64,000 nt of DNA from positions 31,654 through 95,653 of IMG/VR virus record IMGVR_UViG_3300045116_000451; one strand, given 5' to 3'. Source of the stretch: a virus. The position numbers and the translations under genes are program-made. Below, piece by piece: positions 23,765 through 62,928 of this stretch. Below the pieces are notes generated by a model. It was not told the DNA's origin. It saw nothing but the letters and a program-made list of their open reading frames with translations, and made no database searches. Position 1 is the stretch's first letter. The number at the start of each line of letters is the position of its first letter.

Positions 23765-23793
23765 GTTCTACCGGCGCGGACACGATCTGTCAA
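23765..23793 (-). promoter_or_regulatory. sigma70-like promoter for the core/capsid operon
   Basis: TTGACA-N17-TAGAAC on the minus strand upstream of 23731. Confidence 0.65.
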
Positions 23794-23804
23794 GCGCGGC
23801 GCCG

Positions 23805-24551: not shown

Positions 24552-25150
24552 CCCACGATCCCGTCCTTCTTGATGTCAATCTCCGATCCGGTGACGAGAA
24601 AGTGCACCCCCTCGTCCGAGTACACGAGCAGGAACGTTTCACCGGTGTCGGGCCGCTTGCCCGACGCCCAGGTTGCCTTGGGAAGGCGCATCTCGTAGTA
24701 GCGGCCGTCGGTCGCCAGGACCTGCACGCCCTTGAATTCAGCCAGGTCCGACACGAACTTAGGCATCGGGCCCGTCAGCTCGTAGCTTCGGCCCGAGAAC
24801 TCGACGGGCGCTCCGGCTGCGTGACGCACCGACCGAGCACGCCCGTTTCCTTCTCGGAACACGACGGCCTGAGCCCGATCGTTCACGAGCTGAGTGATGG
24901 CCGCGTTGACGAATAGATTCTGCGGCGCTTCGGCGACGTGCTTGTACAGCTCCCACTTGCCGCCGTTGAGCATCTTGTTCGAGAAGTAGATTTCAGCGTT
25001 GGTTTGTCCGAGGTGCATCCAGAACCTAGGCCACTCGAACGAAAGCTCGTGCGGGTTTCTCGCGGGTTTTCCGTAGAATACCTCGCGCTGGCGTTTCGCC
25101 GATTCGAAGACGTTCTTGGTGCTGACTACGGCGACGCGTTCGCGGCTCAC
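24548..25150 (-). CDS. hypothetical protein
   Basis: 200 aa, coupled start and stop. Confidence 0.7.
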   Translation of the reverse strand: MSRERVAVVSTKNVFESAKRQREVFYGKPARNPHELSFEWPRFWMHLGQTNAEIYFSNKMLNGGKWELYKHVAEAPQNLFVNAAITQLVNDRAQAVVFREGNGRARSVRHAAGAPVEFSGRSYELTGPMPKFVSDLAEFKGVQVLATDGRYYEMRLPKATWASGKRPDTGETFLLVYSDEGVHFLVTGSEIDIKKDGIVG

Positions 25151-25542
25151 GAGACGGACCTTTCTTTCTGGCGCGAGCGCATGATCGCAAAAGCGCCCAA
25201 AGCAGCCACGGCTGCGACCACAGCTCCGACAGCGAGAAAGCGAGCCCGATCGCCGACAGGCGCAGCAAAAGCCCCGATGCCAGACGGTACCCCGGTTTTC
25301 TTCGTCCCCTTCCAGACGCCGACTTCACCGCTCGAGATCGAGCCGACCGGAAGGACCCCGTGGCCGACTTTGCGGGCGTCGGGCGGGAGCGGCCGGCCGG
25401 CCATGCTCGCCGGGACTCCGACCGGAGTTGCGAGCGGCGCGAAGTAGCGAGGCGTCGGCAGGTCGTCGTTGAGCGGAACGCGGTCGCCGGCCTCCCAGTA
25501 GTCGAACCCGCCCTCGTACGGGTTGTGCACCGAGTAGATCAC
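25147..25542 (-). CDS. putative virion membrane protein
   Basis: GTG coupled start; C-terminal TM helix. Confidence 0.65.
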   Translation of the reverse strand: MIYSVHNPYEGGFDYWEAGDRVPLNDDLPTPRYFAPLATPVGVPASMAGRPLPPDARKVGHGVLPVGSISSGEVGVWKGTKKTGVPSGIGAFAAPVGDRARFLAVGAVVAAVAALGAFAIMRSRQKERSVS

Positions 25543-26579
25543 AGCGCGCCCTCGAACTCGGCCTCCTCGTACTTGGGCGTCTCGGCAAGCTCGCGGTGGC
25601 GTTCGCGCAAGCGCTTGAGGCTGCGCGCCTTGTGCTCGCCGTACGCCTCGCCCGCCTTGGACAGGGAGGTGACGATCTGGGGCGCGAACTGGATGACGAG
25701 GTAGATGCCGAGACCGGCGGCCCCGAGCCCGATGATCCAGCGCTGGGTGCTCTTCGAGATGAACTGGTCGATGATGCTGGGCGGATTCTCGGAAAGCTTC
25801 GTGACGGCATCCGCCATGTTGCGGCAAATGATCTCGGCGTCCTTGTGGTTCGTGCTGATGGCGAGCTTGCACGCCTCGAGCATCTGCTCTCGGTTCTTCA
25901 AGCTCGCCTGCACGTACGCGTACCAGCTCACAAGGCCAGCCGCCGCTAGGATGGCGATGATGCCCACGTAGAAAAGCACCGGCCCTCCCAGCCCAACCGC
26001 GCCCAAGCTCGGCCCGGTCGTCATGGCGCCCGGTGTCGCGATCGTGATGCGTGAGCCAGGCCCGGCGCCTACGCTTTTTGCGTGCCCCTCGGCGTTGACG
26101 ACCGGGCCCAGCATGGCCGTGCGCCCAAGATGGATGATCTCGGAAAACTGCCGGATGCGCACCTCAACGCCCGCGTCGAAGTCGGCCTGCGACAGCCGGC
26201 CGATGGCGACTTGTTCGCGGGCGTAGCCCGTCAGGTACGCGCCCAGGTTCGCCGACGCCTGGGCGAATTTTCCGAAGTAGATCGATCGTGCTTGTTCGGA
26301 ATCGTACGTGAACGCGGCTTGCTCGGGAACGTCCTGGCCGGACGAAAGCGACTGGATGAGCGTGCCGGCGTAGCGGTCGATGTGGTTGCCGGTCAGCTCG
26401 GAGGCGTTCTCGTACTGCGAGGTGTTCAGAACCGTGCCGGCCGGGAACACGGCGCGGAGCGACGCCGCCGCCTCGTCGTAGGCATGCCCGAGCCTCTGCT
26501 CGGCGCTCATGAGCGGGTCGGCGTAGTAGAGCGGCTGCTTGACCAGGGCAACCGCGCTCGCTTCTTCGCGCCCCGGCAT
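25539..26579 (-). CDS. putative virion membrane protein (2 TM)
   Basis: Two TM helices, AVGLG motif. Confidence 0.7.
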   Translation of the reverse strand: MPGREEASAVALVKQPLYYADPLMSAEQRLGHAYDEAAASLRAVFPAGTVLNTSQYENASELTGNHIDRYAGTLIQSLSSGQDVPEQAAFTYDSEQARSIYFGKFAQASANLGAYLTGYAREQVAIGRLSQADFDAGVEVRIRQFSEIIHLGRTAMLGPVVNAEGHAKSVGAGPGSRITIATPGAMTTGPSLGAVGLGGPVLFYVGIIAILAAAGLVSWYAYVQASLKNREQMLEACKLAISTNHKDAEIICRNMADAVTKLSENPPSIIDQFISKSTQRWIIGLGAAGLGIYLVIQFAPQIVTSLSKAGEAYGEHKARSLKRLRERHRELAETPKYEEAEFEGAL

Positions 26580-26594
26580 GCTCCAGCCTCCGGC

Positions 26595-28040
26595 TCAGTT
26601 CGAGCAGTTGCGGCGGGCCTTGCGACCGCGGCGGCGCCGAGCACGCTTTCGCTTTCGGTTGGCCGAGTAGAACGCGGGCTCGCCGTAGGCTCCGGCTCCG
26701 AGGTCCTCACCCATGCCAAGCTCGTCCATGCCGGGCTCCAGGCCCGCCAGACCGAACTCGTCGCCCATGGCGGGGCCGCCGAGCATGCCTTCCTCGGCCA
26801 CCTTCTTGCGCTTGTAGGCGATGTAGCCGACCGCGGCCGCGCCCACGCCGAGAACTCCCAGGATCACCCACCAGTACTTGCCGAGGAGCGAGGTGCCCGG
26901 GGGAGTCGGAGTGGGCGGATAGCCGGGCGGCACGGGGCCCGGAGGCGTGGTCTGGCCGAAGCAGAACGGCGGGAAGCCGTACTGGCCCGCGGGGCAGGCG
27001 CCGCCGATGGGCGGGATAGAGGTGTCGCCGGGCGCCGGCGTCCCGAAGCAGAAGGGAGGGACGCCGAACTGGCCCGACGGGCACTGGCCCCCTGGCTGAG
27101 GCGGACCGGAGGGAGGGGGCTGGCCCGGGATGGCGGGCGTGCCGACGCAGCCGATGATGGGCAAGTACGTCTGGCCCTGCTGGCAGCCGTGCGTGTCGGT
27201 CGGGGGCTGGCCGGGCATGCCGACGCAGCCGGCCGGGGTCTTGACCTGGCCGCCGGGGCATTCGCTCGGCTCAGATGGGCCCGAGCCGATGCACTTCGGC
27301 CCGAAGGGGAAGGGGTTCTTGGTCTGGCCCGCGGCGCACTCGCTGGGCGGGTTGACGACGCCGCCTCCACCTCCGCCGCCTGGCCCGGTGGCGCCGATGG
27401 GCATGCAGCCGAGCATGGGCACGTAGGTCTGCCCGGCAGGGCACTGGCCGGCTGGGGGCGGCTGCCCTGGTTGCGGGGGCGGCACCGTCGGCGAGATCGG
27501 CGGGATCGTCGAAATGGGGTCGGGCAGGCACTGGCTGATCATCGGTTCCCAGTGCTGGCCCTGCGGGCACTGCTGCGGCACGGGCCCGCCTCCGCCGGGG
27601 CAACGACCCTCGACTGGAACGCCGTCCGTGCAGTCGGTGCACACGTTGACGTTCGAGACGGTGAAATCGGGCACGATGTCACCCCAGACCACGTTCTCCG
27701 ACTTGCACCTCTGACCCGTGGCTTCGTAGATTTGGGCGGACTTCACGAAGGGATCGCCGCCGTGCTGGTACTTCCAGGCGCTTGCGGTGCAGCCCTTCCA
27801 GTCGCCGTCGACGTGCAGGCTCGGTGCGCCGCGCGCCTTCAGGTACGCCTGGATCTGGCGCACCAAGCTCGTGTTCGCGGTGTTGCACGAGACGAGCGGG
27901 CCTGAGCCACCGGCCCCGCCCCCCCCGCCTCCACCGCCGCCGCCGGGCAGACCACCCGGGATTCCCTCGGGGAACGGCCAAGTACCCACGCCGAGCACGT
28001 TTCGCTCACTGAAGATGCCGCCTCGTCCGCTTCGCTTCAT
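26595..28040 (-). CDS. putative spike/receptor-binding protein: PG-binding-like domain, CPxGQ repeats, TM, basic tail
   Basis: VRQIQAYLKARG...DGDWKGCTASA; about 7 C(P/A/Q)xGQ repeats; YWWVILGVLGVGAAAVGYIAY; ANRKRKR tail. Confidence 0.7.
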   Translation of the reverse strand: MKRSGRGGIFSERNVLGVGTWPFPEGIPGGLPGGGGGGGGGGAGGSGPLVSCNTANTSLVRQIQAYLKARGAPSLHVDGDWKGCTASAWKYQHGGDPFVKSAQIYEATGQRCKSENVVWGDIVPDFTVSNVNVCTDCTDGVPVEGRCPGGGGPVPQQCPQGQHWEPMISQCLPDPISTIPPISPTVPPPQPGQPPPAGQCPAGQTYVPMLGCMPIGATGPGGGGGGGVVNPPSECAAGQTKNPFPFGPKCIGSGPSEPSECPGGQVKTPAGCVGMPGQPPTDTHGCQQGQTYLPIIGCVGTPAIPGQPPPSGPPQPGGQCPSGQFGVPPFCFGTPAPGDTSIPPIGGACPAGQYGFPPFCFGQTTPPGPVPPGYPPTPTPPGTSLLGKYWWVILGVLGVGAAAVGYIAYKRKKVAEEGMLGGPAMGDEFGLAGLEPGMDELGMGEDLGAGAYGEPAFYSANRKRKRARRRRGRKARRNCSN

Positions 28041-28044
28041 GTTC

Positions 28045-28740
28045 TCACCTGGGTCCGTAGGATAGGTGGCGCTTGCGACCGCGTCCAGAGCGCCGCCCGC
28101 CCCGGCTTCGGGGCCGATTTGAAACAGCTTTGGGCGTGCGCGTCGCACGGTAGATGACGTAACCCACGGTCAGCACGAGCACCGTTGCGCCGAGCGCAAA
28201 CGCTCTGACCATGCCCTCAAACAGCTCGAGCTGAGGCCTCTTGTGAGGTTCTTTGGTCAGATCGATGGTCGACGACTCGGGCAGGTCGGAGATGCGCAGC
28301 TTGGGCAGCACCGCGAACCGAGCGGTGCTCGAGAGCGTCGGCGCGGCGGCCTGTTTGGCGGCGAGAGCCCGCGCCATCGCAGCGTACGGCGAGTAGTCGA
28401 TGGGCTTCGGAGGCGTGACGCAGTTTCCCTGCGCGTCCTTCACCTTGCCCGCGCCGCAGACGGCCGTGAACGCGAATCCTGTCGGCTGAGCCGGCGTGCT
28501 CGGGATCTTGGTAAAGAACCCGCCGATGGTAGGAGGCGGTGCCTGGCAACCAACGCCCGGCAAGTAGACCTGGCCCTCGGGGCAGGAGGTCAATTCTTCA
28601 GGGACGAGTGGCTGACAGCCAACCCCGACTACGTAGGCTTGCCCTTCGGGGCATTGAAGCATGTCGGCCGGAATCTCTGGCTGTTTCACCGAGCCTGGCA
28701 TGCCCCAGGCGCCAAATGCGCGCAGACCGAAACGCGTCAT
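28045..28740 (-). CDS. CPEGQ-repeat membrane protein (paralogue of 29048-29896)
   Basis: CPEGQ twice, TM, SNRPRSR tail. Confidence 0.7.
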   Translation of the reverse strand: MTRFGLRAFGAWGMPGSVKQPEIPADMLQCPEGQAYVVGVGCQPLVPEELTSCPEGQVYLPGVGCQAPPPTIGGFFTKIPSTPAQPTGFAFTAVCGAGKVKDAQGNCVTPPKPIDYSPYAAMARALAAKQAAAPTLSSTARFAVLPKLRISDLPESSTIDLTKEPHKRPQLELFEGMVRAFALGATVLVLTVGYVIYRATRTPKAVSNRPRSRGGRRSGRGRKRHLSYGPR

Positions 28741-29523
28741 CGGTCCCTCCCATATCGCCCTCGGGGGCGTTCAACACGCCGCCGGTTCGTCGCAAGTGAG
28801 CCACCGCGTGCTTCCCGCACGAGCTTGACGACGGGTTTCAAGAATTCGCGTTTGCTCGCTGTGACCACGATGTATCCAACGACCGCCATGCCGAGCACCA
28901 TCGTAGCCGATTGAATGAAACCAGAAGTGAGCGGCCCCGCCCACCATCGATCGACGCACCATCCGAACGGGTTGAGCCGCTGCCAGTAAGGACACGCCTG
29001 CCGGCGAATTCCTTCGCGGTAGTCGTCGGGCGAAAGCAGGTCGGCGCCTAGCGATTGCAATTTCGCAGAGCCTCCCCGCAGTTGGGCGTGGCCCCGGGCT
29101 TCCGCGTCATCTTGTAGACGACCACGCCACCGACCAGGAGCGCGACCGCGCCGAGCCCCCAGAGCCACGCGCGCGAGCCAGGAGCCATCCCGGGCAACGG
29201 CATCGCCTGTCGTTCCTTGGGCAGATCGGAAATGCGAAGCTTCGGAAGCACCGCGAACCGAGCCGTGCTCGAGAGCGTCGGCGCAGCGGCCTGCTTGGCG
29301 GCGAGGGCTCGTGCCGCCGCTGCGTACGGCGAGTAGTCGATGGGCTTCGAGGGCGTGACGCAGTTGCCCTGCGCGTCCTTGACCTTGCCCGCGCCGCAGA
29401 CGGATGTGATCGCCCAGCCGACGCTCGGCTCAGCCGGCGTGCTCGGGATCTTCGTGATGAACCCGCCCACCGTGGGCCCCTGGCATCCGACGCCCGGAAG
29501 GTAGACCTGCCCCTCGGGGCAGC
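28280..29523. repeat. About 300-bp direct duplication (28280-28585 and 29220-29523)
   Basis: Both copies encode CPEGQVYLPGVGCQ...VCGAGKVKDAQGNCVTP...LPKLRISDLP with mostly synonymous differences. Confidence 0.9.
28737..29060 (-). CDS. small membrane protein
   Basis: TTG start after GGAGG, LQSLG, TM, TNRRR tail. Confidence 0.55.
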   Translation of the reverse strand: MQSLGADLLSPDDYREGIRRQACPYWQRLNPFGWCVDRWWAGPLTSGFIQSATMVLGMAVVGYIVVTASKREFLKPVVKLVREARGGSLATNRRRVERPRGRYGRDR

Positions 29524-29896
29524 CCGCCGGAGCCGGAGGCGTCACGTAGTCCTCGCCCGCCGGGCAAGGTCGTTTTGGCGGGACCTTGTAGAACTTGCCG
29601 CATTCGATACCGACGGCGCGCAGGGATGCCTTGGTCGCGGGCTCCCCGAACATCTGCTGGAACACGCTGTCGGTGCAGACGCCCCACAAGCCGTCTTGCG
29701 TCAGCTTTTTGGCGCCGGCTTCTTTCATGGACTTTTGCATGAAACGCGCCACCGCCGTGTCGCTCCATTCGTCAAGAACGCAGCTCGGGAACTTGACGAG
29801 CGCATCGGCCTCGGTTCCGAGCCCGAGCAAAGGGCCCCCGAGAGATCCGAGCCCCTGAGCGAGCGCGCCTCGACCGAAGATGCCAGCGTTTCTCAT
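29048..29896 (-). CDS. membrane protein with PG-binding-like domain and CPxG repeats
   Basis: VARFMQKSMKEAG...DGLWGVCT; C-terminal TM. Confidence 0.7.
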   Translation of the reverse strand: MRNAGIFGRGALAQGLGSLGGPLLGLGTEADALVKFPSCVLDEWSDTAVARFMQKSMKEAGAKKLTQDGLWGVCTDSVFQQMFGEPATKASLRAVGIECGKFYKVPPKRPCPAGEDYVTPPAPAGCPEGQVYLPGVGCQGPTVGGFITKIPSTPAEPSVGWAITSVCGAGKVKDAQGNCVTPSKPIDYSPYAAAARALAAKQAAAPTLSSTARFAVLPKLRISDLPKERQAMPLPGMAPGSRAWLWGLGAVALLVGGVVVYKMTRKPGATPNCGEALRNCNR

Positions 29897-29897
29897 G

Positions 29898-30002
29898 TCA
29901 CTTCCCTCGCCGGCCAGGGCCGGTCTGCACCGTCATCATGGCCACGATGATCGCGCTCGCGACCGCGGCCACCGCAAGAACTCCTATCCAGCCATTCAAC
30001 AT
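29898..30002 (-). CDS. 34-aa single-TM peptide (absent from the ORF track)
   Basis: MLNGWIGVLAVAAVASAIIVAMMTVQTGPGRRGK fills the gap between neighbouring genes. Confidence 0.5.
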   Translation of the reverse strand: MLNGWIGVLAVAAVASAIIVAMMTVQTGPGRRGK

Positions 30003-30012
30003 CGCGTGCCGT

Positions 30013-30291
30013 TCATCTGTACTTGCGACGCCCGCGCCTACGCGGCTTCATCCATGACCAGCGCCGGGTGCCGGCGCGCTTTCGCTTTCTTCGCTTGCGA
30101 CGATTGGCGACCGCCTCGCCCGGCTTCTTTCGGGTGATGATGACCGCGCCGATACCGATGACCAGAACGCCAACGGCTCCAAGCATGAGCGTCTTCGTGG
30201 ACACCCGCGAGAGAAGGGGCACCGGAGCTGGCGGGATCGACAGGGGCTGGATGCCGCTGCCCCCACCAATCTTCGTGATCGCAAAAGCCAT
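30013..30291 (-). CDS. small membrane protein with basic tail
   Basis: TM then ANRRKRRKRKR. Confidence 0.7.
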   Translation of the reverse strand: MAFAITKIGGGSGIQPLSIPPAPVPLLSRVSTKTLMLGAVGVLVIGIGAVIITRKKPGEAVANRRKRRKRKRAGTRRWSWMKPRRRGRRKYR

Positions 30292-30294
30292 GAC

Positions 30295-31038
30295 TCAGTA
30301 CCCTCCGGCGTAGGCAGGCTTTCTTTTGGTCGCGACGGAGATTCCGACCACGACCATGATGGCACCGGCGCCGAACCACGCGATGACCGGCAGGCCGAGG
30401 AACGGCTTCGTGAGGAAGCCCATGACGCCACCGCCAGGTGGCTGCACGACCGGCGGCGTGGTCGGTGGCGTGTACGTCGGGGGCACGGTCTTCACCGGCG
30501 GCGTGGTCGGTGGCGTGTACCCGCCCCCGCCTCCGACCGTGACGCACTTGTTCGTCTTCGGGTCGAGCTTCTGGCCGGTCGGGCACATTGGCGCTACAGG
30601 CGGCGTGTAGCCGGGAACTTCGCACGACTCCCTGCTCGGGTTCCAGACCTGACCGGTCGGGCACTCGGGCACAAGCTCGACCGGCTCCGGCGGGACGCTT
30701 GAAACAAGGCCCTCGCACGTTCCGGGGCAGGCGGCTTCGCAGTTGGGATCGCGTTCGCACATGCCCTGGCAGTTGAAGATGCACGTCGCAACCGCGGGAT
30801 CGGCGCCGAGTCCATGCAACGACGATGGACGAGCCCGACGCAGGTGCAATCCCCACGGCAGGCCACGACGATCAACCACGTTGTAGATGTGCGCACCGAG
30901 TCCTTCGTCGCCGAGTCCATCAAGCGACGTGCCCAGGGTAGTCGGTCCGCGGAAGATGCCCGTTTCGCCAAGGCCGCTCAGCACACCCGCGCCTCGCCGT
31001 CGAAACGTATCCCTCGTGTAGAAGATGCCTTGTGCCAT
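30295..31038 (-). CDS. Cys/Pro-rich virion membrane protein
   Basis: LSGLG, LDGLG, LHGLG; CPTGQ twice; YTPPTTPPV twice; C-terminal TM. Confidence 0.7.
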   Translation of the reverse strand: MAQGIFYTRDTFRRRGAGVLSGLGETGIFRGPTTLGTSLDGLGDEGLGAHIYNVVDRRGLPWGLHLRRARPSSLHGLGADPAVATCIFNCQGMCERDPNCEAACPGTCEGLVSSVPPEPVELVPECPTGQVWNPSRESCEVPGYTPPVAPMCPTGQKLDPKTNKCVTVGGGGGYTPPTTPPVKTVPPTYTPPTTPPVVQPPGGGVMGFLTKPFLGLPVIAWFGAGAIMVVVGISVATKRKPAYAGGY

Positions 31039-31049
31039 GTCCGTGCCTT

Positions 31050-31592
31050 TCACCACGCGGTCGCGTGTTCGCGCTTTCGCTTGATGCCAACGATGAGAGC
31101 GCCGACGGCAGCCAGACCGACCGCGCCCGCGCCAAGGTAGAGCGGGTCCTTGTACCAGGGGACCTTGCCCGCGGGCCCGACGCCTGGCCCCGTTCGGCCA
31201 GCGAGCTTGCCGTAGTAGCAACCTGCCCAGGCCGTGTAGTCGGCTTGCATCCCGGCGCAAGCAGCCGACGCCTGAGCCATGAGCGCCGAGTACTCGGCCG
31301 TCTTCGAGGGGTTCGCGGCGATGTCCGCCGCCATCCTCGTGTTGAACGCGACGCAGTCGGCGTGAGCCTGCGGGTTCGAGCTGACGGGAGCACAAGCGGC
31401 CTCGACGCCCGAGCCGATGCCGGGAAGAACGCCGAGGCCCTCGAGCGCCGGCATCCTGACGATCGGCTGCACGACGAAGTTTCCCTGCCGGCTGTCTTCG
31501 CGGAAAACCGGGCGCGTGTAGATCGGGCCGCGAATGTACGGCCATCGAAGCCACTCGAAGTACGTCGGGTTGAGGATGCGCCGGTGGCTCAT
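31050..31592 (-). CDS. virion membrane protein
   Basis: LEGLG motif, C-terminal TM then KRKR. Confidence 0.7.
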   Translation of the reverse strand: MSHRRILNPTYFEWLRWPYIRGPIYTRPVFREDSRQGNFVVQPIVRMPALEGLGVLPGIGSGVEAACAPVSSNPQAHADCVAFNTRMAADIAANPSKTAEYSALMAQASAACAGMQADYTAWAGCYYGKLAGRTGPGVGPAGKVPWYKDPLYLGAGAVGLAAVGALIVGIKRKREHATAW

Positions 31593-31972
31593 CGTCGCTT
31601 CCCGTGGCGCCGGCGGCGGCGCTTTCGGTTGGGGCTCGCGCTGCCAGTTCCGCGGTACGCCGCGTAGCCGGCGGAGACGATGGGGCCGCCGAACAGGCCT
31701 CCCCAGAACCAGCCGTGCTTGCCGCCGTGCGCCTTCTTGCCGATGTACCAGCCCATGGCCGCGCGAAGAGCGCCACCGACGAGGAGCACGCCGGCCAGAA
31801 TACCGAGGGCCACCATCTGCCCTCGCTTCGAGACTTGCTGCGGCTCGACAGCACCAAGGCCCGAGAGCCGGGCTTTGAGAGCCTCGCCGAAACGCATCGG
31901 CCGCAGGAAGAGCGCGGGCCTGCCGAACGAGAACGGCCCAACCGGGGGCCATGCCTGCCCGAGAGCGTTCAT
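31589..31972 (-). CDS. virion membrane protein (paralogue of 31969-32580)
   Basis: LSGLG; ALRAAMGWYIGKK; PNRKRRRRR tail. Confidence 0.7.
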   Translation of the reverse strand: MNALGQAWPPVGPFSFGRPALFLRPMRFGEALKARLSGLGAVEPQQVSKRGQMVALGILAGVLLVGGALRAAMGWYIGKKAHGGKHGWFWGGLFGGPIVSAGYAAYRGTGSASPNRKRRRRRHGKRR

Positions 31973-32580
31973 CGCGCACCTCGCTTGCCCTTGCGGGTCT
32001 TTTTGCGTTGCTTGGTGCCCCTCTCGACGAACACGTCATGCCCCACCACGCGCTTGCCGTGACGTTCGGTGTGGATTCGGATTTTGATCGTTCGCTGATC
32101 ACAAGCGGGCGCGAGAACGCCGATGGCACGATGCACCTGCGCTCTGCTCGGCGCTTGTGCAGGCGGGGTGAGGCGCATGCTGAGATTCGGGCATTTCGCT
32201 CCGGTTCGCTTGATGTTCGCGAGCGCGCTCTGTCCGGCGCCTGGCTTGGCGAAGAGCGCTACCCCGAATAGGCCCGTCGTGCCGAAGACCGTGCCGGCCA
32301 AGCTTCCGGCAATGGGGTGGCCCAGGCGCTTGCCCACGTAGTAGCTGCTCGCGGCTCGAAGCGCCATGTACACGAGGAACGTGATGCCCATGCCCTTGAG
32401 CACGCGCGAGAACGCGGTCGTGAACGGCTCCCAGGTGCTCGGTGGAGGTTGGGATCCGTTCGCGCCTAGGCCCGCCATGGGACGCAGCGACGGCACCACC
32501 GAGATCACGTGCGGGTTGTAGTACGCCCCGAGCCCCTGAAGAGGGCTCGTCTGCGGGTACGAGTAGTAGTTCGCGAACAT
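31969..32580 (-). CDS. virion membrane protein
   Basis: LQGLG, MAGLG; ALRAASSYYVGKR; basic tail. Confidence 0.7.
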   Translation of the reverse strand: MFANYYSYPQTSPLQGLGAYYNPHVISVVPSLRPMAGLGANGSQPPPSTWEPFTTAFSRVLKGMGITFLVYMALRAASSYYVGKRLGHPIAGSLAGTVFGTTGLFGVALFAKPGAGQSALANIKRTGAKCPNLSMRLTPPAQAPSRAQVHRAIGVLAPACDQRTIKIRIHTERHGKRVVGHDVFVERGTKQRKKTRKGKRGAR

Positions 32581-43269: not shown

Positions 43270-43940
43270 ATCTAAACCCCATCGCGGCGGGCAACGAGCC
43301 GCGACGGGTGCTGCGGCGCCTTGCGCGGCCGGAAGTCGGCGCATCTAAACCCCATCGCGGCGGGCAACGAGCCGCGACCAGCCCACCGGCGCCGAAGGGG
43401 ATGTCGATCATGGCATCTAAACCCCATCGCGGCGGGCAACGAGCCGCGACGGCGTTGCCCAGATCGGTCAGCGGCCGGACGCCGTCGGATCTAAACCCCA
43501 TCGCGGCGGGCAACGAGCCGCGACTGCGCCGGCGGCGCCGACGGCCCGCCTGGCGTGTACGATCTAAACCCCATCGCGGCGGGCAAGGAACCGCGACGCC
43601 AGCGTCCCTCGGGCCCGAGGCCGGCCATGCCCGATCTCAATCCCATCGCGGCGGGCAAGGAGCCGCGACATCACGCATCGCACGACACCTCGGCCAAGGT
43701 CCGACCGAATCTAAACCCCATCACGGCGGGCAAGAAGCCGCGACAAGAGCAGCAGGGAGTAACTCGTAACTCTATCGCGGCGGGCAAGGAGCCGCGCCCG
43801 AGCACGCCACCGGCTGGGTGCGCGTCGCCATCGGGATCTCAACCCCATCGCGGCGGGCAAGGAGCCGCGACGCGTGGGGCGTCCATATCACCCCGACGCA
43901 TCGCATCTAAACTCCATCGCGGCGAGCAATGAGCCGCGAC
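43270..43940 (+). CRISPR. CRISPR array 1: 10 repeats, 9 spacers
   Basis: 36-bp repeat ATCTAAACCCCATCGCGGCGGGCAACGAGCCGCGAC at 43270, 43343, 43415, 43489, 43562, 43634, 43709, 43763 (degenerate), 43836, 43905; spacers 33-39 bp except one of 18 bp. Confidence 0.97.
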
Positions 43941-48037: not shown

Positions 48038-48492
48038 ACGCGCCCCTGTTTTTGGCCGCGTCGATCGGACGCATTCTGCTTTATCTCGCGGAGGGCACGA
48101 GATCGTTTCGGGGTTCCAACGCAAGCTGACCTACCGTTTAGTATGTGAAACCACGTAACGAGCCACATGCAAACGAAGTCAGATTTGTAACTGAGCTTGG
48201 CCACGGCGCGTGGCACCAGATGAGAGTCGCGTCGCCAGGAACAACGTTTGCCAGTTTTGAAGTTCACGTCCAGGATTTCAAGGGTAGCGCCTCCAACCCC
48301 GACTTTTCCGTCGTCCATCGAAAGAGCGTCGGCTTTGTCGAGCAACCGATTGAAGAGCTTCGCCGGGATGAGAAAGCCCCCTCCCTTGGACGCCAGGGGT
48401 GGCCTGACCTCGTGCTCGATGTGCACCATCCCGTCCATGTCGAGCCAGACGTACATGCCCTCCGGGTTGCTCCAACATCGAATGTAGCTCAA
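48034..48492 (-). CDS. hypothetical protein
   Basis: Probable TTG start overlapping the upstream stop; SYIRCWSN N-terminus. Confidence 0.45.
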   Translation of the reverse strand: MSYIRCWSNPEGMYVWLDMDGMVHIEHEVRPPLASKGGGFLIPAKLFNRLLDKADALSMDDGKVGVGGATLEILDVNFKTGKRCSWRRDSHLVPRAVAKLSYKSDFVCMWLVTWFHILNGRSACVGTPKRSRALREIKQNASDRRGQKQGRV

Positions 48493-49181
48493 GGGCTCGG
48501 CTCCGTTCCGGTCTGCATGAGGTTCACGAAGGTCGCAAGCGTGGGGGCGGCCGTGTACCGGACGCCGAACGTCTTGCCCGCTGTCGTGACGTGGCCGATC
48601 TTCACGAGGTGCCCCAGCATGCGCTTGAGCGCGCGATGCTTGCCCGGGTGCCCGTCGCATCCGAGCGCCGTGGACAGGTCGCGCACGCTCGCGCCTCCCT
48701 GGGTCTCGGTCAGGGCGCGCACGATCGCGATCTGTTCGGCCGCGGTGAGCCCCTGCAGCACGGAGACTGGCATGGCCGGCCTCGGGCCCGAGGGACGCCG
48801 ACGCAGAAGCTCGGCACGCCAGCGGGACTTGCGGATCCCAACCGCCTTGCCGCACGCCTCGTAATAGCTCGGATGCCGATCCGCGACGAGGCGCAGGACC
48901 TCGATCGCGATGCGGTAGGCGCGGTCGATCTCGTCGCACTGCTCGTCGATGGCCTGGTCACGGGAGATGACGAGGTCGCGACGGAGCCGCTCGATGTCGA
49001 CCGGCAGCTCCTCGGGCGCGTAGTCCCGGTAGCTGCCGCTGAGCAGTCGCTTCGCGGTCGCGAAGTCCGAGGTGAGCTTTGCCTTGCGTGCACGTATCGC
49101 GGCATCGCGCCCCTCGGTCAAACACGAAAGAAGGGTTTCGAACGGCGTTTGTTGCAGGGGCGTGTCGCTCGGGGGTGCCAT
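48489..49181 (-). CDS. putative DNA-binding protein with C-terminal winged HTH; contains the protospacer-like site
   Basis: ASVRDLSTALG...LKRMLGHLVKIGHV...GVRY. Confidence 0.65.
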   Translation of the reverse strand: MAPPSDTPLQQTPFETLLSCLTEGRDAAIRARKAKLTSDFATAKRLLSGSYRDYAPEELPVDIERLRRDLVISRDQAIDEQCDEIDRAYRIAIEVLRLVADRHPSYYEACGKAVGIRKSRWRAELLRRRPSGPRPAMPVSVLQGLTAAEQIAIVRALTETQGGASVRDLSTALGCDGHPGKHRALKRMLGHLVKIGHVTTAGKTFGVRYTAAPTLATFVNLMQTGTEPSP

Positions 49182-49191
49182 GATTTCGCGA

Positions 49192-49221
49192 ACCGTATCA
49201 GTCACAAGGGGGCGATGTCAA
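49192..49221 (-). promoter_or_regulatory. putative promoter of the wHTH gene
   Basis: TTGACA-N18-TACGGT with TGn extension. Confidence 0.4.
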
Positions 49222-49254: not shown

Positions 49255-49435
49255 GTCGCGGTTTCTTGCCCGCCGCGATGGGGTTGAGATCGGCACGGCA
49301 GCGGGTACCGGGTGTGGAGTGGACGCAGTCGCAGCTTCGTGCCCACTGCGATGGGGTTGAGAGGCTGGGCGCTCGGTGGCGCCCCCGTCCGCATCACACG
49401 TCGCAGCTTCTTGCCAGGCGCGATGGGAAACGAAC
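49255..49435 (-). CRISPR. CRISPR array segment 3: 3 degenerate repeats, 2 spacers
   Basis: Repeats at 49255-49290, 49328-49363, 49400-49435; spacers 37 and 36 bp. Confidence 0.8.
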
Positions 49436-49447
49436 CGACGTCCGTGT

Positions 49448-49690
49448 TCATTTGAGGACGTAGCGTTTCAGTTCGCATTTTGCCAGTGTTGAATACTTTG
49501 GAAACGTGCTCTCAACACCGAACTTCGGGTTCGAGGTGAGAGAATAAATGCGACCACAAGAGGGGCATCTTACTACCACGTCGTGGCTGCACCACCGTAC
49601 AGCGATTCGCTCTCCACAATCACACAGCCTGTCTTCTTCGTCCATGCACACTAGACGTTGAATCTCGGCAATTGATGCCAAAGGTTTCAT
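49448..49690 (-). CDS. 80-aa Cys-rich (Zn-ribbon) ORF between CRISPR repeats
   Basis: AGGAG RBS, ATG 49690, CDC...CPSC; lower GC than flanks. Confidence 0.6.
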   Translation of the reverse strand: MKPLASIAEIQRLVCMDEEDRLCDCGERIAVRWCSHDVVVRCPSCGRIYSLTSNPKFGVESTFPKYSTLAKCELKRYVLK

Positions 49691-49707
49691 GACTACTCCT
49701 ACTGTTG

Positions 49708-50110
49708 GTCGCGGCTCCTTGCCCGCCGCGATGGGGTTGTGAGCCCGTACGGGCCGGCTCGGAGCGTCCGAGGTCGGCCCCGGTCGCGGCTTCTTCCCCG
49801 CCGCGATGGGGTTGCGAGATCTCGGGCAGGCTGCCGTGCTCGTGCGAGCCATCGACGTCGCGGCTTCTTCCCCGCCGCGATGGGGTTGCAAGCCGGAGGC
49901 GGCGGATCGGGTGGCCTCCGGCCGACGCGGGTCGCGGCTTCTTCCCCGCCGCGATGGGGTTGCAAGGATCTGCCTCCTGTTCAGGGCACGGGGAGAGATC
50001 CAGGTCGCGGCTTCTTCCCCGCCGCGATGGGGTTGCAAGGCCCAGCGGAGGACCGCCACCGCCATCTCGACCACGTCGCGGCTTCTTCCCCGCCGCGATG
50101 GGGTTGCAAG
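49708..50110 (-). CRISPR. CRISPR array 2: 6 repeats, 5 spacers, 12 bp downstream of the cas12 stop
   Basis: Repeat CTTGCAACCCCATCGCGGCGGGGAAGAAGCCGCGAC (minus strand) at 50075, 50004, 49931, 49857, 49783, 49708; spacers 35-39 bp. Confidence 0.97.
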
Positions 50111-50122
50111 GGGTCTCGCAGA

Positions 50123-52036
50123 TCATGAGGCTTTCCGCCACTTCCGGCGCGGCGTTGCGAGCGCTTCCTGTTCCTGCTGCCTTTCGAGTCGCCTTCGCGC
50201 CGCGCGCTTGAACCGCGACTCTCCCTTCCGCACGTCTTCGCTCGCTTTCTTGCGCTTGCGAGTGGTCCCTGGCTCCGGCGCGCCGCTGAGGTGCTCGCGC
50301 ACCAAGTTGCGGGCGGCGTTCTCGTCTTGGTCCCACGTCTCCCCACACACCGTGCACGTGTGCACGAGCACGTTCGCAGCGTCGAACGCCTGCTCCGCGC
50401 CGCACGCATGGCAGTTCTGCGTGGTGCCCGCGACCGGCCGAAGCGAGACAGCACCGGTGCGTTTGAACGCGTTCATCACCTTGATCCTGAAGTCCCCCGT
50501 CGCGACGAGCTGCCGGTTCGATCGGGCGACCTCGTTCTCGGCCTCGGGGGCCTCGGGCGGCTGCCGTCGCGCGAACTCGCGCAGGTCCATCGCGGGCACA
50601 TCAGTGCCGTCGTCGTCCTCGAGCACGACCGTCTCGTAGGCGCGCGACAGCTCGGCCGCAACCTGCTCGAAGAGCTTGTCGCGCTGGTGCAGCGCGCGCC
50701 GTCGCTGAGAGGCTTCCCGGCGCCAGATCCACCGGTCCGCGTACCACCAGTTCTCGGCCGCTGCGAACGCCTGCTCGTCGCCGGGCCAACGCCGCTCGCG
50801 CCAGACGCGCCCGACAAATGCAGAGAGGCGCCCCGGCGAGCGCCACTTCGGCAGCGTCTCGATCGCCTCGGCGAACCATGGCGGCACCTCGAGCCCTTCG
50901 AGGCGCCCGAGCAGCGCTGCCCGCGCCTCGTTGAACGTCTGGTCTCGGTCAGCCTTGAATCGCTCCGCGCGTCGCAGGCAGGCCACGAGGAGCGCGGGCA
51001 CGCGCACTTCCCCATGGCGCCCGTCTTGCCCGTACCAGTAGCCAATCCGCACGTCGTGCGGGTAGCCGTCCACAGGCTCGGCGGCCTCGAGCTGCCGCCA
51101 GCCGATGTCCACGCCGACGCACAGGCCCGAGCCCTGCGCCCGAGGCGGGCGCTTCACGTCGGTCGTGTCCACGGTCAGAAGCAGCCGCCAGACGTCGCGG
51201 GGGCCGACCCTGTCGCACTTGACCGCAGCCCACTTGATCACGCCAGCCGGAGGCAGCTCGCGGTGCAGCAGCGCGGGCCAGGCTCCAAAGATCGGCTTGC
51301 GGTCCTGGGTCTGCACGCACATGCGAAGCGTGGACCGCGCCAGGGACCTGCGACCGCGCCCCGGCGCCTGCGCTGCATTGGTGCGCACGTAGGCTCGCTC
51401 GTCGGGACGCGCTAGCATCACGCGCGTGTTGGGCTGGAATACCTTGGAAACGGGTAGGCCGTTCTGGAGCTGTACGGCGATCTTCCCGCCACCCGTCCAC
51501 TCGTGGACGCGCGCTGGGTCGCGGGGAGCAGCCCCTTCGTAGAGCGGCGTCTTTCGTGCCGCATCGTCCGCCTGCTCGACCAGCAGGTAGGTGCCCCAGT
51601 ACACGCCGCACTCCGCGCGCAGTTCGAGCCGGATCCCGTGCGCGCGCTCGTTGACGGCTGCGAGTTCTGCGGCCATCGCCTCCTCAGCGCGCTTGGTCGC
51701 CGTTCGGAACTCGGTTAGCGCAACGCGTTCGGCTGCCCGAGCGCTCGTCACGGCGTCGGTGAGCGCCTGGTCGGGATTGCGCTCGCCCGTTTCGATGCGC
51801 GCCGCCTTGAGCGCCTCCAGGGCGCTGCAAACCACCTCGCCCGCAGCGGTGGCCGATGCGAGCGCAGCAGCGAACGGTTCGTGTTTGGCGAGCACGGCGC
51901 GGTACATCTCGCGGCGGCCACGCTCCAGGCGCGCCAACTCGCGTCTGTACTGGTGCGCGACCCGCATCTGGTCCAGAACGAGATCGGAATGCTCGAATGG
52001 CCTACCGAGGCCGTACTGGTACACGCATGTGCTCAT
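50123..52036 (-). CDS. cas12m: Compact type V CRISPR effector, Cas12m (V-M, formerly V-U1/C2c4)-like, 637 aa
   Basis: RuvC-I VGVDIGWR, RuvC-II VVLE, CHAC...CTVC Zn finger, RuvC-III DQDENAA; family motifs YWGTY, IAVQLQ, HRELP, WRSP; N-terminal coiled coil; GGAGG RBS; adjacent array. Confidence 0.85.
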   Translation of the reverse strand: MSTCVYQYGLGRPFEHSDLVLDQMRVAHQYRRELARLERGRREMYRAVLAKHEPFAAALASATAAGEVVCSALEALKAARIETGERNPDQALTDAVTSARAAERVALTEFRTATKRAEEAMAAELAAVNERAHGIRLELRAECGVYWGTYLLVEQADDAARKTPLYEGAAPRDPARVHEWTGGGKIAVQLQNGLPVSKVFQPNTRVMLARPDERAYVRTNAAQAPGRGRRSLARSTLRMCVQTQDRKPIFGAWPALLHRELPPAGVIKWAAVKCDRVGPRDVWRLLLTVDTTDVKRPPRAQGSGLCVGVDIGWRQLEAAEPVDGYPHDVRIGYWYGQDGRHGEVRVPALLVACLRRAERFKADRDQTFNEARAALLGRLEGLEVPPWFAEAIETLPKWRSPGRLSAFVGRVWRERRWPGDEQAFAAAENWWYADRWIWRREASQRRRALHQRDKLFEQVAAELSRAYETVVLEDDDGTDVPAMDLREFARRQPPEAPEAENEVARSNRQLVATGDFRIKVMNAFKRTGAVSLRPVAGTTQNCHACGAEQAFDAANVLVHTCTVCGETWDQDENAARNLVREHLSGAPEPGTTRKRKKASEDVRKGESRFKRAARRRLERQQEQEALATPRRKWRKAS

Positions 52037-52278: not shown

Positions 52279-52503
52279 TCATTGCCCGTCCGTCTTCCCG
52301 TTCTTCAGCCACTCGACGAACGCAGCCTCGCAGTCGTGGCAGAGGTCGTAGGTGGCAGTGCCGACCGGCTCCGCGCAATTGCCGCGTCTAGGCCACCAAC
52401 TGTGGGTGATCTTGCCCCCACGCGAGTCTAACGCGCTGGACGAGCCATGCGACGCGCCTTCTGCTCCACACCTGTCGCACACCAATACACTACGCAAGCT
52501 CAT
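52279..52503 (-). CDS. small Zn-finger protein
   Basis: CDRCG...YDLCHDCEAAF. Confidence 0.65.
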   Translation of the reverse strand: MSLRSVLVCDRCGAEGASHGSSSALDSRGGKITHSWWPRRGNCAEPVGTATYDLCHDCEAAFVEWLKNGKTDGQ

Positions 52504-52733
52504 CTGTCAGTCTCCTTCGCTCTCCGAATCCACTCGCCGAACGCAGCCTCACAGTCCTGGCAAAGGTCGTAATCCACCGTGCCACCGCCGACGGCACCGT
52601 CGTAAGCGCGCCCCCAGACCTCAGCGTTGCGAACATGCCGACCGCCACGTGCGAACGCGCCCGATCGGTACTTCACGCCCTCCGCGCCGCACCGGTCACA
52701 CACCATCACGTCCACGGTCTTTCGTGTGCTCAT
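52500..52733 (-). CDS. small Zn-finger protein (paralogue)
   Basis: CDRCG...YDLCQDCEAAF. Confidence 0.65.
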   Translation of the reverse strand: MSTRKTVDVMVCDRCGAEGVKYRSGAFARGGRHVRNAEVWGRAYDGAVGGGTVDYDLCQDCEAAFGEWIRRAKETDR

Positions 52734-59889: not shown

Positions 59890-60573
59890 TCAAAACGTGA
59901 TCTGAGACCGGACCACCAGCGTTGCATCTGCGGGCCAGGCGATCTTGAAGACGTCGTACCTTCGTGCAGATTCACGCCTCATTCCGTACCAGTAGTCCCG
60001 ACCATTCAGTTCGAGCCTCACGACCGCTTCGTTCCCTTCTCTGGGAACCGCTTGTTGAAACTCGGGCTTTTGCAGATGCCGGGCTATCACGAGTTGGAGA
60101 AACTCCATGGCTGCGGTCCGCGCGTACGCGGCCGGATAGGCGAATCGCTTCTCGTGACGGTACATCGCCTCCGCCAGCTCGACATTGCGCGGTCCTCCCT
60201 CCAGTGTCGTCCATCCGCTCGTGTACAAGCCATCCAAATCCGTCTCGTACGAGTACCAGAAAGCTTCGTTGCCCTTGGGACACTTCGCAGGCTTGCAATG
60301 AGCGAGACCTCCGGCTTTGCGGATCCGGTCGGCCAGATCGAACAGCGTGTCCCAGTGCCGATCGCACCGAAGCCGGCAACGGTGGTACAGGTCCTCGGCC
60401 CGCGCCAGAACGTTCGGATGAACAAAACGTCCCTCCCAAACGCGGCCGATACCTTGATAGTGGTCATACTGCTTTCGGATCCTTTGTCCGCCCTTGTACA
60501 CCCAGCCGTCACCGCGAAACTCGGTCACTGGGTCCGGCCTCGGATCAAATGCTCGTACTTCAGGCGTCGTCAT
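59890..60573 (-). CDS. hypothetical protein
   Basis: 227 aa coupled ORF. Confidence 0.6.
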   Translation of the reverse strand: MTTPEVRAFDPRPDPVTEFRGDGWVYKGGQRIRKQYDHYQGIGRVWEGRFVHPNVLARAEDLYHRCRLRCDRHWDTLFDLADRIRKAGGLAHCKPAKCPKGNEAFWYSYETDLDGLYTSGWTTLEGGPRNVELAEAMYRHEKRFAYPAAYARTAAMEFLQLVIARHLQKPEFQQAVPREGNEAVVRLELNGRDYWYGMRRESARRYDVFKIAWPADATLVVRSQITF

Positions 60574-61283
60574 GACCCGCTGCTCCTCTCCAGGTGCCTA
60601 CTCTTCGTGCGCTGCCAGCCAACGGGCAGGTAACTGGTCGGATAGTAGGCCCCCGCGAGGTTGGCCCCCGCGAAGTCGGCCCCCGCGAGGTCGGCCCCCG
60701 CAAGATTGGCACCTGCGAGGTTGACCCTCGTGAGGTGGGCATCCGCGAGGTTGGCCCCCGTGAGGTTGGCCCTCGTGAGATTGGCACCCGTGAGGTCGGC
60801 CCCCACGAGGTTGGCACTCACGAGGTTGGCACCCACGAGGTTGGCACCTGCGAGGTTGGCACCAGCGAGGTCCAGCCGGCCGAGTCGCGCACCGCACGAT
60901 TCGCCCCAGGCGTGCTCGGGGAGCACCTCGCCGATGATCTCGCGCCGCAGCGCACAGCATTTCTGCTCATCCGCCACGACTTGTCCTACGAGCGCGACGA
61001 CCCACACCCGCGAGCCGCACCAACGATGCGGCTCATCGGTCGCGTGCAGCGCGTGTTCGGTGCACGGATGCAGCGAGCCGTCCACCTCCTGGCTCATCCC
61101 GGGCCACACCGACTCGCCCGGCTGCCTCGACGCGTGATTCGCCGGCCTCCCGTGCGCGTCGCTGCACCAGTACGTGATCCTGTCGCCTCGCTCGACGCAC
61201 CGGGCGAGGTGCTCGCGCTGGGCGTCGGTCCACCCAGTCGCCCCCACGGGGCCGATATCAGTGCGGGTCCCGGTGATCCTCAT
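60570..61283 (-). CDS. pentapeptide repeat protein
   Basis: A(N/D)LxG repeats after a shared N-terminal domain. Confidence 0.9.
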   Translation of the reverse strand: MRITGTRTDIGPVGATGWTDAQREHLARCVERGDRITYWCSDAHGRPANHASRQPGESVWPGMSQEVDGSLHPCTEHALHATDEPHRWCGSRVWVVALVGQVVADEQKCCALRREIIGEVLPEHAWGESCGARLGRLDLAGANLAGANLVGANLVSANLVGADLTGANLTRANLTGANLADAHLTRVNLAGANLAGADLAGADFAGANLAGAYYPTSYLPVGWQRTKSRHLERSSGS

Positions 61284-62161
61284 GGCGCGCTTCTCGCGAG
61301 CTTCCCGGATTTGGTTCGGCGCCAGCCGTACGGCACATCGCCGGTCGGGTAGTATGCGCTGTCGAAATTCGCCCCATTCGTATGTGTATCTAGCAAATCC
61401 ACTCCTGCGAGGTTCGCTTCCTGCAACCTCGCATCACACAGCTCCGCATATTGCAGATTCGCGCTATGCAGATTCGCGCGCAACAGTTTGGCATCCCGCA
61501 GATTCGCTCCATACAGGTTCGCGAATCGGAGGTCCGCGTCTCGAAGATTCGCGCCGCCTAGATTGCAATTCCCGAGCGTCGCGCCCTCCAGATTCGCTCC
61601 CCACAGGTTCGCGCCCCCCAGATTCGCGCGCCACAGTTTGGCATTCCGAAGGTTCGCGCCGCACAGGTTTGCAACCCGAAGATCCGAGGTGCGCAAGTCA
61701 GCCCCCTCCAGATTCGCGTCTTCCAAGTACGCGTTGCACAAAAACGAACCTGCGAGATCCTGCCGCCCGACTCGGACACCGCACGATTCATCCCAAGCAT
61801 GGTCCGGGAGCACTTCTCCGATGATCTCGCGACGGAGAGCGCCCAATTTCGCGTCATCGTCGAATTTCACCTCCCCGGCTAGTGAGACGACCCAAACGCG
61901 TGCCCCATACCAGCGATGCGGCTGGTCAGTGCCGTACAGCATGCGCGCGCCAAATTCCAGCGCTTGATCGAGTTCCTGGATCATTCCAGGCCAGACGAAA
62001 TCGTCGGGCTGATACCACGCCGGTCGCCCTTGGGCGTCCGAGCACAAGTAGGTGATGCAGTCACCGCACTCGATGCAGCGGGCGAGGTGCTCGCGCTGAG
62101 CGTCGGTCCACCCAGTCGCCCCCACGGGACCGATGTCAGTGCGTTCGCCTGAGATCTTCAT
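61280..62161 (-). CDS. pentapeptide repeat protein
   Basis: A(N/D)Lxx repeats; same N- and C-caps. Confidence 0.9.
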   Translation of the reverse strand: MKISGERTDIGPVGATGWTDAQREHLARCIECGDCITYLCSDAQGRPAWYQPDDFVWPGMIQELDQALEFGARMLYGTDQPHRWYGARVWVVSLAGEVKFDDDAKLGALRREIIGEVLPDHAWDESCGVRVGRQDLAGSFLCNAYLEDANLEGADLRTSDLRVANLCGANLRNAKLWRANLGGANLWGANLEGATLGNCNLGGANLRDADLRFANLYGANLRDAKLLRANLHSANLQYAELCDARLQEANLAGVDLLDTHTNGANFDSAYYPTGDVPYGWRRTKSGKLARSAP

Positions 62162-62928
62162 GGCGTCGTGCTCCTCTCCAGGTACCCGTTCTCCGCGCGC
62201 CGCCAGCCAACGGGCAGGTCACCGGTCGGATAGTAGGCCCCCGCGAGGTTGGCCCCCGTGAGGTTGGCCAGCACGAGGTCGACCCCCGTGAGGTTGGCCC
62301 TCGCGAGATTGGCACCTGCGAAGTTGGCCCTCGTGAGATTGGCACCCGTGAGGTTGGCCCACGCGAGGTGGGCATCCGCGAGGTAGGCCCACGCGAGGTT
62401 GGACCACGTGAGGTTGGCACCTGCGAGGTTGGCCCCCGCGAGGTTGGCATCCGCGAGGTGGGCATCCGCGAGGTGGGCATCCGCGAGGTTGGCCCACGCG
62501 AGGTTAGCCCACGCGAGATCCCGCCTGCCCAGCCGCGCACCGCACGATTCGTCCCATGCGTGCTCTCGGAGCACCTCGCCGATGATCTCGCGCCGCAGCG
62601 CACAGCACTTCTGCTCGTCGGACACGATCTGTCCGACTAGCGCGACGACCCACACCCGCGAGCCGCACCAACGATGCGGCTCGTCGGTCGCGTGCAGCGC
62701 GTGTTCGGTGCACGGATGCAGCGGGCCGTCCACCTCTTGGCCCATGCCCGGCCACACGGATCCGTCTCCGGAGCCGCCGTTCGCCGGCCTCCCGTGCGCG
62801 TCGCTACACCAGTAGGTGATGCGATCCCCACGCTCGATGCACCGGACGAGGTGCTCGCGCTGGGCGTCGGTCCATCCCGTTGCGCCAACGGCGCCAAAGT
62901 CGGTGCGGGTGCCGGAAATTCTTATCAT
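62158..62928 (-). CDS. pentapeptide repeat protein
   Basis: A(N/H)LAx repeats; same N- and C-caps. Confidence 0.9.
   Translation of the reverse strand: MIRISGTRTDFGAVGATGWTDAQREHLVRCIERGDRITYWCSDAHGRPANGGSGDGSVWPGMGQEVDGPLHPCTEHALHATDEPHRWCGSRVWVVALVGQIVSDEQKCCALRREIIGEVLREHAWDESCGARLGRRDLAWANLAWANLADAHLADAHLADANLAGANLAGANLTWSNLAWAYLADAHLAWANLTGANLTRANFAGANLARANLTGVDLVLANLTGANLAGAYYPTGDLPVGWRRAENGYLERSTTP

Follow-up and report, generated by a model that had tools for sequence, protein, structure and literature searches.

We analysed a 64,000-nucleotide window of the record IMGVR_UViG_3300045116_000451 from IMG/VR, in which the gene for a RuvC and zinc-finger protein stands next to a CRISPR array. 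Both its sequence and its predicted fold show that this protein belongs to the Cas12m family (type V-M), and the repeats beside it carry the conserved guide-RNA handle of that family. The locus is probably a genuine and intact CRISPR-Cas12m module carried by a lake-water virus or virus-like mobile element, where it would act as a DNA-binding silencer against close relatives. The window corresponds to bases 31654-95653 of the record, which is linear, 95,653 bp long, 66% complete as estimated by CheckV and classed as viral by IMG/VR; its source is lake water.

The Cas12m protein

We chose the downstream of two in-frame ATG codons as the start of cas12m (Table 1). A GGAGG ribosome-binding site lies 6 nt before it, and relatives align from residue 5 onward in the numbering of the longer, 641-residue form, which is used for the RuvC and zinc-finger residues given below. 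The stop codon (50123-50125) is separated by 12 bp from the first repeat (50075-50110). These coordinates confirm the arrangement described in an initial annotation, made from the sequence alone, which had noted a RuvC and zinc-finger protein of 637 residues with its stop 12 bp from a six-repeat array. The protein contains the RuvC triad D314, E477 and D575 (D-E-D), and the cysteines of its zinc finger are C546, C549, C565 and C568.

A phmmer search of the PDB with the full-length protein matched the Cas12m structure 23vw over residues 10-584 (E 4.5e-60), followed by Cas12m2 (8hhl, 4.4e-26), GoCas12m (8pm4, 9.6e-14) and UnCas12m4a (23vu, 3.6e-13). TnpB appeared in this search through the last ~55 residues only (E 2.6e-5). 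Pfam recognised only the C-terminal TNB zinc finger (Cas12f1-like_TNB), while the NCBIfam models of TnpB reached about a tenth of their cut-offs (IS607_TnpB, 35 bits vs a cut-off of 350, at the C-terminus only) and the NCBIfam model of Cas12f2 gave an E of 0.13. Among Cas12m, Cas12f and TnpB, Cas12m was therefore clearly the best match, and the likeness to Cas12m that had been proposed in the initial annotation was borne out.

Structure prediction led to the same family. An AlphaFold2 model built with 34 relatives had a mean predicted local distance difference test score (pLDDT) of 86.3 and a predicted template modelling score (pTM) of 0.75. Its layout is that of Cas12m, with a coiled-coil REC domain, a WED domain, a RuvC domain with a helical insertion, and a zinc-finger/TNB domain. 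In a Foldseek search with this model the nearest folds were Cas12m2 (8hhl, template modelling (TM) score 0.73/0.79) and GoCas12m (8pm4, 0.72/0.76). The top four matches were all Cas12m (TM 0.62-0.79), far above the next match, a Cas12f at 0.35; when scored by query length, Cas12f and TnpB fell within 0.32-0.38, TnpB being at 0.38. An identity as Cas12f (V-F) was rejected on the NCBIfam result and on the TM scores of Cas12f by query length (0.32-0.37).

An exhaustive HMMER search of 1.84 billion representative proteins identified 3,122 relatives, of which 1,498 scored at E 1e-30 or better. The nearest of all these representatives shares 43-44% identity with the viral protein, and every invariant and nearly invariant family position that was checked is kept in it. 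Its placement in clade 3 or 4 of the family rests on bit scores only.

Two arrays with a conserved guide handle

The coordinates of cas12m, the arrays and the features discussed with them are collected in Table 1. The initial annotation had described the six repeats that adjoin cas12m, and missed both the three degenerate repeats of array A past the 272-bp insert and the whole of array B. Arrays A and B lie on opposite strands and point towards each other. The first five repeats of array A are identical and the sixth has the spelling of array B; the array-B spelling of repeats at the old end of array A fits a past exchange between the arrays. In array B the first four repeats are identical and the later ones are decayed.

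Table 1. Features of the cas12m locus, in coordinates of the window.
Feature	Position	Strand	Description
cas12m	50123-52036	-	637 aa from the ATG at 52036; an in-frame upstream ATG at 52048 would give 641 aa
Array A, part adjoining cas12m	49708-50110	-	6 repeats of 36 nt; 5 spacers of 35-39 nt
Insert in array A	49436-49707	-	272 bp, 50% GC; 80-aa CxC...CxxC zinc-ribbon open reading frame (ORF), 49448-49690
Array A, old end	49255-49435	-	3 degenerate repeats (49400-49435, 49328-49363, 49255-49290); spacers of 36-37 nt
Array B	43270-43940	+	10 repeats; 9 spacers, one of only 18 nt
Spacer B5	43598-43633	+	only spacer related to the virus's own genome
B5 protospacer-like site	48767-48802	-	inside a 238-aa ORF, 48489-49205 (-), the first gene after array A

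The repeat ends at its 3' side in a 7-bp TCGCGGC/GCCGCGA hairpin followed by C, as had been noted earlier from the sequence of the adjoining array, and this hairpin is also the minimum-energy fold (-13.3 kcal/mol). We tested the hairpin, together with a pseudoknot formed by CCCC upstream of the stem with GGGG in its loop, in 41 repeats, namely 39 distinct repeats of viral Cas12m loci and the two types found here. Both helices covary across this set: 79% of the cells in the alignment are paired vs 57% in shuffles, and none of 500 shuffles reached the score. A change on both sides was seen in 104 cells, and slid partners paired in only 30-48%. The resulting stem-plus-pseudoknot scaffold agrees with published descriptions of Cas12m2 and PmCas12m.

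A covariance model of the family recovered 18 of the 19 repeats at the locus, including two of the three degenerate repeats of array A, and gave 32-34 bits for the adjoining repeats of this array. The model also fixed the strands: array A is read with cas12m, and array B is read from the plus strand. With regard to a tracrRNA, the covariance search returned no repeat-like match on the opposite strand near cas12m, a result that covers full-length matches only. Scans for promoter and terminator consensus sequences stayed at shuffle level. The zinc-ribbon ORF of the insert has an AGGAG ribosome-binding site whose distance from the preceding repeat is 17 bp. Its Pfam matches are weak, and a comparison with the 75 other viral Cas12m loci yielded no homologue.

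The element is present in 17 lake-water metagenome runs, among which no RNA run is listed. In contigs of four of them, which are listed under separate studies, the locus is near-identical, with two single-base differences that both fall in one run. The element is thus real and stable across these four runs.

Three further observations concern the repeats. A contig in runs X3 and X4 passes from one array to the other, on the opposite strand, through 32 nt that repeats B9 and A6 have in common (43872 and 49708); this strand-switching joint may stem from an isomer in which the 5.8-kb segment between the arrays is inverted, or from a path choice of the assembler at low depth. In runs X4 and X5, contigs extend beyond 43942: the last repeat of array B is followed by ~21 nt with no counterpart in the window and then by the start of a repeat, which points to strains with other spacers further along array B. 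Lastly, a sequence at L002:15573-15608 of the same record, 16 kb before the window and ~60 kb from the arrays, is a candidate solitary Cas12m repeat, with a gene start 27 nt downstream of it; it shares 27 of 36 nt with the array repeats, keeps six of the seven stem pairs and scores 19.3 bits in the covariance search (E 0.057). A large network of scattered handles is not seen in this genome.

No Pfam match to Cas1, Cas2, Cas4 or the Y1 transposase (TnpA) was found across the 95,653-bp record, while positive controls were matched. This confirms the absence of cas1, cas2, cas4 and tnpA that had been reported for the window and extends it to the record; since the latter is ~66% complete, the result applies to these 95.6 kb and not to the whole genome. 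The repeat forms no array in 185,579 species genomes, where three isolated single matches are consistent with chance, and its pattern does not recur in other IMG/VR contigs. Acquisition of spacers through host Cas1-Cas2, as the initial annotation had proposed, is therefore unsupported, and on the same result we rejected a reading of the locus as a mini-array that depends on host Cas proteins.

Proposed silencing of related viruses and its rival explanations

The initial annotation had noted the intact RuvC triad and a basic C-terminal tail, and had suggested that the protein may be able to cut. The triad is indeed present, but it does not distinguish the protein: among the 158 nearest relatives, 127 have D-E-D, nine N-E-D, six N-D-D and two H-D-D. 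The tail is likewise family-wide and not a special feature, with 67 residues after RuvC-III as against a family median of 62. According to Wu et al. 2022, as cited in PMC10442227, Cas12m has four clades, of which clades 3 and 4 have D-E-D or N-E-D. The triad states described for the family are H-E-K/H-Q-K, H-D-D, D-E-D/N-E-D and D-N-D. Bigelyte et al. reported that four D-E-D orthologues, together with H-D-D and N-D-D ones, bound double-stranded DNA in a manner dependent on the protospacer adjacent motif (PAM), and that none of them cut; guide processing, from precursor CRISPR RNA (pre-crRNA), was independent of the RuvC aspartate (PMC11013384). Conversion of Cas12m2 from H-D-D to D-E-D did not restore cutting (PMC10442227). 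Because D-E-D is the family norm and the tested D-E-D orthologues do not cut, the triad gives little reason to expect a nuclease, and the hint of cutting competence is a weak one. By analogy with these orthologues, the viral Cas12m most likely binds and silences DNA without cutting it.

Evidence on the targets comes from spacer B5. It matches the resident site at 33 of 36 nt, with an exact core of 30 nt (blastn-short E 2e-12), and differs from it at spacer positions 2, 4 and 35. As a control, the other 14 testable spacers gave best ungapped matches of 23-26 to the genome vs shuffled maxima of 23-27, which is background. Two of the differences are synonymous third-position changes (CGT/CGC and CCA/CCC) and the remaining one, CGG/CAG, exchanges Arg and Gln, a pattern that looks like a diverged allele of the same gene. 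Positions 2 and 4 belong to the first 11 nt of the guide, a stretch in which mismatches are reported to be very poorly tolerated by Cas12m (bioRxiv 10.64898/2026.10.26.761838). The simplest reading is that the guide derives from a close relative and would now target this competing virus, while the resident gene would escape. This would amount to superinfection exclusion, as has been shown for viral mini-arrays (PMC11656645). Inter-virus competition, one of the two roles suggested in the initial annotation, thus finds some support in B5, and gene control, the other, is kept as a rival explanation only. Spacer B5 is the most useful point of the locus, in that its allele-like changes in the mismatch-sensitive part of the guide bear on exclusion of relatives vs self-regulation.

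Taken together, a course of events can be proposed. As in characterised orthologues, cas12m and array A would be transcribed together, and Cas12m would cut the long transcript into guides that each consist of a repeat-derived handle and then a spacer. The complex would bind PAM-flanked double-stranded DNA tightly and block transcription or replication, by analogy without cutting, despite its D-E-D triad. At least one guide appears to have been taken from a diverged allele of a gene in the same virus lineage. The system would most likely be used against closely related viruses in the same cell, because the B5 guide would derive from such an allele, and the mismatches of B5 at guide positions 2 and 4 probably protect the resident copy.

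Several points weigh against this proposal. The 5' flank of the B5 site is TGC. Comparison of the whole of arrays A and B with INPHARED, and searches for the 30-nt core of B5 in IMG/VR and in JGI metagenome contigs, revealed no external protospacer. A search for spacer A4 in IMG/VR and a comparison of array B with 50 Cas12m-bearing viral records were negative or at chance level. Likewise, no protospacer was found when the spacers were compared with the 75 viral loci, or when the 435 spacers of those loci were compared with this genome. The donor allele of B5 was not found, and its target gene has no homologue in IMG/VR, the JGI metagenomes or 5.8 billion proteins. The lack of cutting is extrapolated from characterised relatives with only limited identity, and pure binding leaves the strong conservation of D-E-D across the family unexplained. 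Finally, the viral nature of the element follows from its class in IMG/VR and from its RecT/RecE, lytic transglycosylase, DUF5131 and helicase genes, with no capsid or terminase recognised.

An intact D-E-D protein could instead be a cutting-competent Cas12m that cleaves or nicks the DNA of competing elements, which we consider unlikely. The predominance of D-E-D among the relatives suggests selection on catalysis, and hydrolysis of DNA by clades 3 and 4 has been put forward as a speculation by Omura et al. (PMC10442227); a preprint on the myxophage MV-1 suggests likewise for the Cas12m of that phage (bioRxiv 10.64898/2026.09.14.751636). However, the assay in which the four D-E-D orthologues showed no cleavage of double-stranded DNA was a sensitive one, based on adapter ligation (PMC11013384), Cas12m2 did not regain cutting with its D-E-D restored, and 23vw, the nearest of the solved structures and itself D-E-D in the alignment, is deposited as a 'DNA-binding protein'. 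It is also rather improbable that guides such as B5 serve as built-in CRISPR interference (CRISPRi) on the 238-residue gene and the helicase operon downstream of array A. B5 does match the virus's own gene through its 30-nt exact core, pairing of its guide would be with the template strand, self-targeting is tolerable when the effector does not cut, and two further viral Cas12m loci (L004 and L070) hold exact self-matches. Against such self-regulation, two of the mismatches (guide positions 2 and 4) lie where Cas12m is reportedly mismatch-intolerant, the mostly synonymous differences look allelic and not like a designed partial match, only one of 15 spacers relates to self, and TGC is not a known TTN-type PAM. 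A doubtful form of this explanation is that the near-self B5 tunes the 238-residue gene and the helicase operon while the inverted arrays act as a recombination switch, which flips the 5.8-kb cassette and changes the array promoter reading in. The self-matches in L004 and L070 and the strand-switching joint in two runs are compatible with a self-guide or switch of this kind.

A decaying relic, captured from a plasmid or bacterium and no longer used, would account for the missing adaptation genes, the degenerate distal repeats of both arrays, the 18-nt spacer, the foreign insert inside array A and the lack of targets found, and yet seems quite improbable to us: the gene is intact and keeps the checked invariant and nearly invariant positions of the family, the starting repeats are identical (five in array A and four in array B), and the locus is near-identical in contigs of four lake-water runs. 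We regard it as extremely unlikely that the protein, instead of being a CRISPR effector, is a TnpB of the IS200/IS605 or IS607 type that works with an omega-RNA; an IS200/IS605 TnpB with an omega-RNA had been named in the initial annotation as the case against its own assignment. The NCBIfam TnpB models and the Cas12f1-like_TNB model of Pfam do match the C-terminal zinc-finger region. These matches are far under the cut-offs and confined to the C-terminus, the full-length matches in sequence and fold are to Cas12m, the record has no recognised Y1 transposase, and two true repeat-spacer arrays carry the covarying Cas12m handle. On the phmmer, fold, transposase and array results together, a TnpB/omega-RNA identity was excluded. 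Silencing of close relatives by a DNA-binding Cas12m is the explanation that we favour over all of these. Spacer B5 and the possible inversion between the arrays are the parts of the locus of most interest for experiment.

Related systems and the surroundings of the locus

Scans of IMG/VR with the single protein as query found no close relative, whereas a profile query found at least 75 distinct viral loci that encode relatives. A repeat array lies directly downstream of the cas12m gene in ~59 of these 75 loci. Among the 50 Cas12m-bearing IMG/VR records examined, completeness reaches 90% or more in 21, and direct terminal repeats are present in 11; at least six of the 39 records searched for it carry a terminase above the Pfam cut-off. 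Type V-M systems are enriched on plasmids and are also encoded by some prophages, according to a 2024 review (PMC11656645), and a preprint of September 2026 describes a 610-residue D-E-D Cas12m with an array in the myxophage MV-1 (bioRxiv 10.64898/2026.09.14.751636). Virus carriage of Cas12m is thus neither new nor rare; public viral metagenomes commonly contain V-M systems borne by viruses, and the present locus is not a one-off. It adds one divergent member to a family that is already being developed as a compact DNA-binding tool. It opens no new category, and its intact triad is no reason to expect a nuclease.

Some of the viral loci are of interest in themselves. One viral genome, IMG/VR contig 3300032770_000005 (152.9 kb, 100% complete), carries two diverged cas12m genes (L036 and L078), and the L078 protein is the closest viral relative of the protein described here, at 41% identity. 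In L004 (7094-7166), two spacers exactly match overlapping sites, on both strands, of a 190-residue gene two ORFs upstream of cas12m. In L070 (8917-8951), one spacer exactly matches a site inside its own cas12m. An apparent self-match in L074 was rejected as a duplicated array unit.

Comparison with D-E-D Cas12m proteins of clades 3 and 4, such as MsCas12m (PMC11013384) and the protein in 23vw, showed full-length homology, a length of ~600 residues, the same triad, and the same succession of an N-terminal coiled-coil REC domain, WED, RuvC and a CxxC...CxxC zinc finger. In both cases a single effector lies by an array whose 36-nt repeats form a 3' stem and pseudoknot, without cas1, cas2 or cas4. 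Unlike these systems, the present one has at most 44% identity to any representative, a putative virus as its carrier and not a plasmid or chromosome, and two arrays on opposite strands, one of them with a protein-coding insert. MmCas12m2 and GoCas12m (clade 2, H-D-D; 8hhl and 8pm4) have the same fold (TM 0.72-0.79) and, by analogy, presumably the same mechanism of PAM-dependent DNA binding and transcriptional silencing; they have His at RuvC-I and Asp at RuvC-II, where the viral protein has Asp and Glu, and the structural alignment gives an identity of only 19-22%.

MvCas12m of the myxophage MV-1, which could be compared by description only, is likewise phage-encoded, has an adjacent array, D-E-D and no adaptation genes, and no protospacers were found for it. 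It differs in having 610 residues, one array and eight spacers, in contrast to the 637 residues, two arrays, 14-15 intact spacers and lake origin of the present system. Viral mini-arrays (PMC11656645) resemble it as virus-borne arrays that lack adaptation genes and hold a spacer from a gene of the same lineage. However, they borrow host Cas proteins and have host-identical repeats, whereas the locus described here has its own effector and no matching host array was found.

The genome has a GC content of 66%. Among the gene products recognised in the record are RecT, RecE, a lytic transglycosylase domain, two helicases, DUF5131, a radical-SAM protein, a glycosyltransferase, two pentapeptide-repeat proteins and a 1,603-residue protein with a tyrosine-recombinase domain. 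Searches of the record with Pfam (including Terminase_6N and Phage_capsid) and, on 30 ORFs, with PHROGs identified no protein of the capsid, portal, terminase or tail; the same Pfam models miss most complete Cas12m phages, which makes this negative uninformative. Since a third of the genome is missing as well, the 'tailless virus' of the initial annotation is not established. No tRNA genes were found in the record.

A long block of minus-strand ORFs at 14976-32347, among them those for proteins of 887, 517, 346, 327, 264 and 255 residues, is without a PHROG or Pfam match. The 327-residue capsid candidate matches only viral clusters labelled Uroviricota in an Atlas search.

Just upstream of cas12m, on the minus strand at 52279-52733, two tandem genes encode small paralogous CxxC...CxxC proteins of 74 and 77 residues and share DNA segments of 81-89% identity. 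Another small ORF, rich in Cys, ends 37 nt short of the cas12m start. The 1,603-residue protein (5744-10555, plus strand) has its tyrosine-recombinase (Phage_integrase) domain at residues 533-749 and is unusually large for an integrase. The two pentapeptide-repeat proteins (60570-61283 and 62158-62928, both on the minus strand) match PF00805 of Pfam with E of 2e-22 and 8e-31. Pentapeptide-repeat proteins can mimic DNA, and by analogy a role of these two in counter-defence is conceivable. Their genes are built of 15-bp tandem repeats, in ~15 and ~19 copies.

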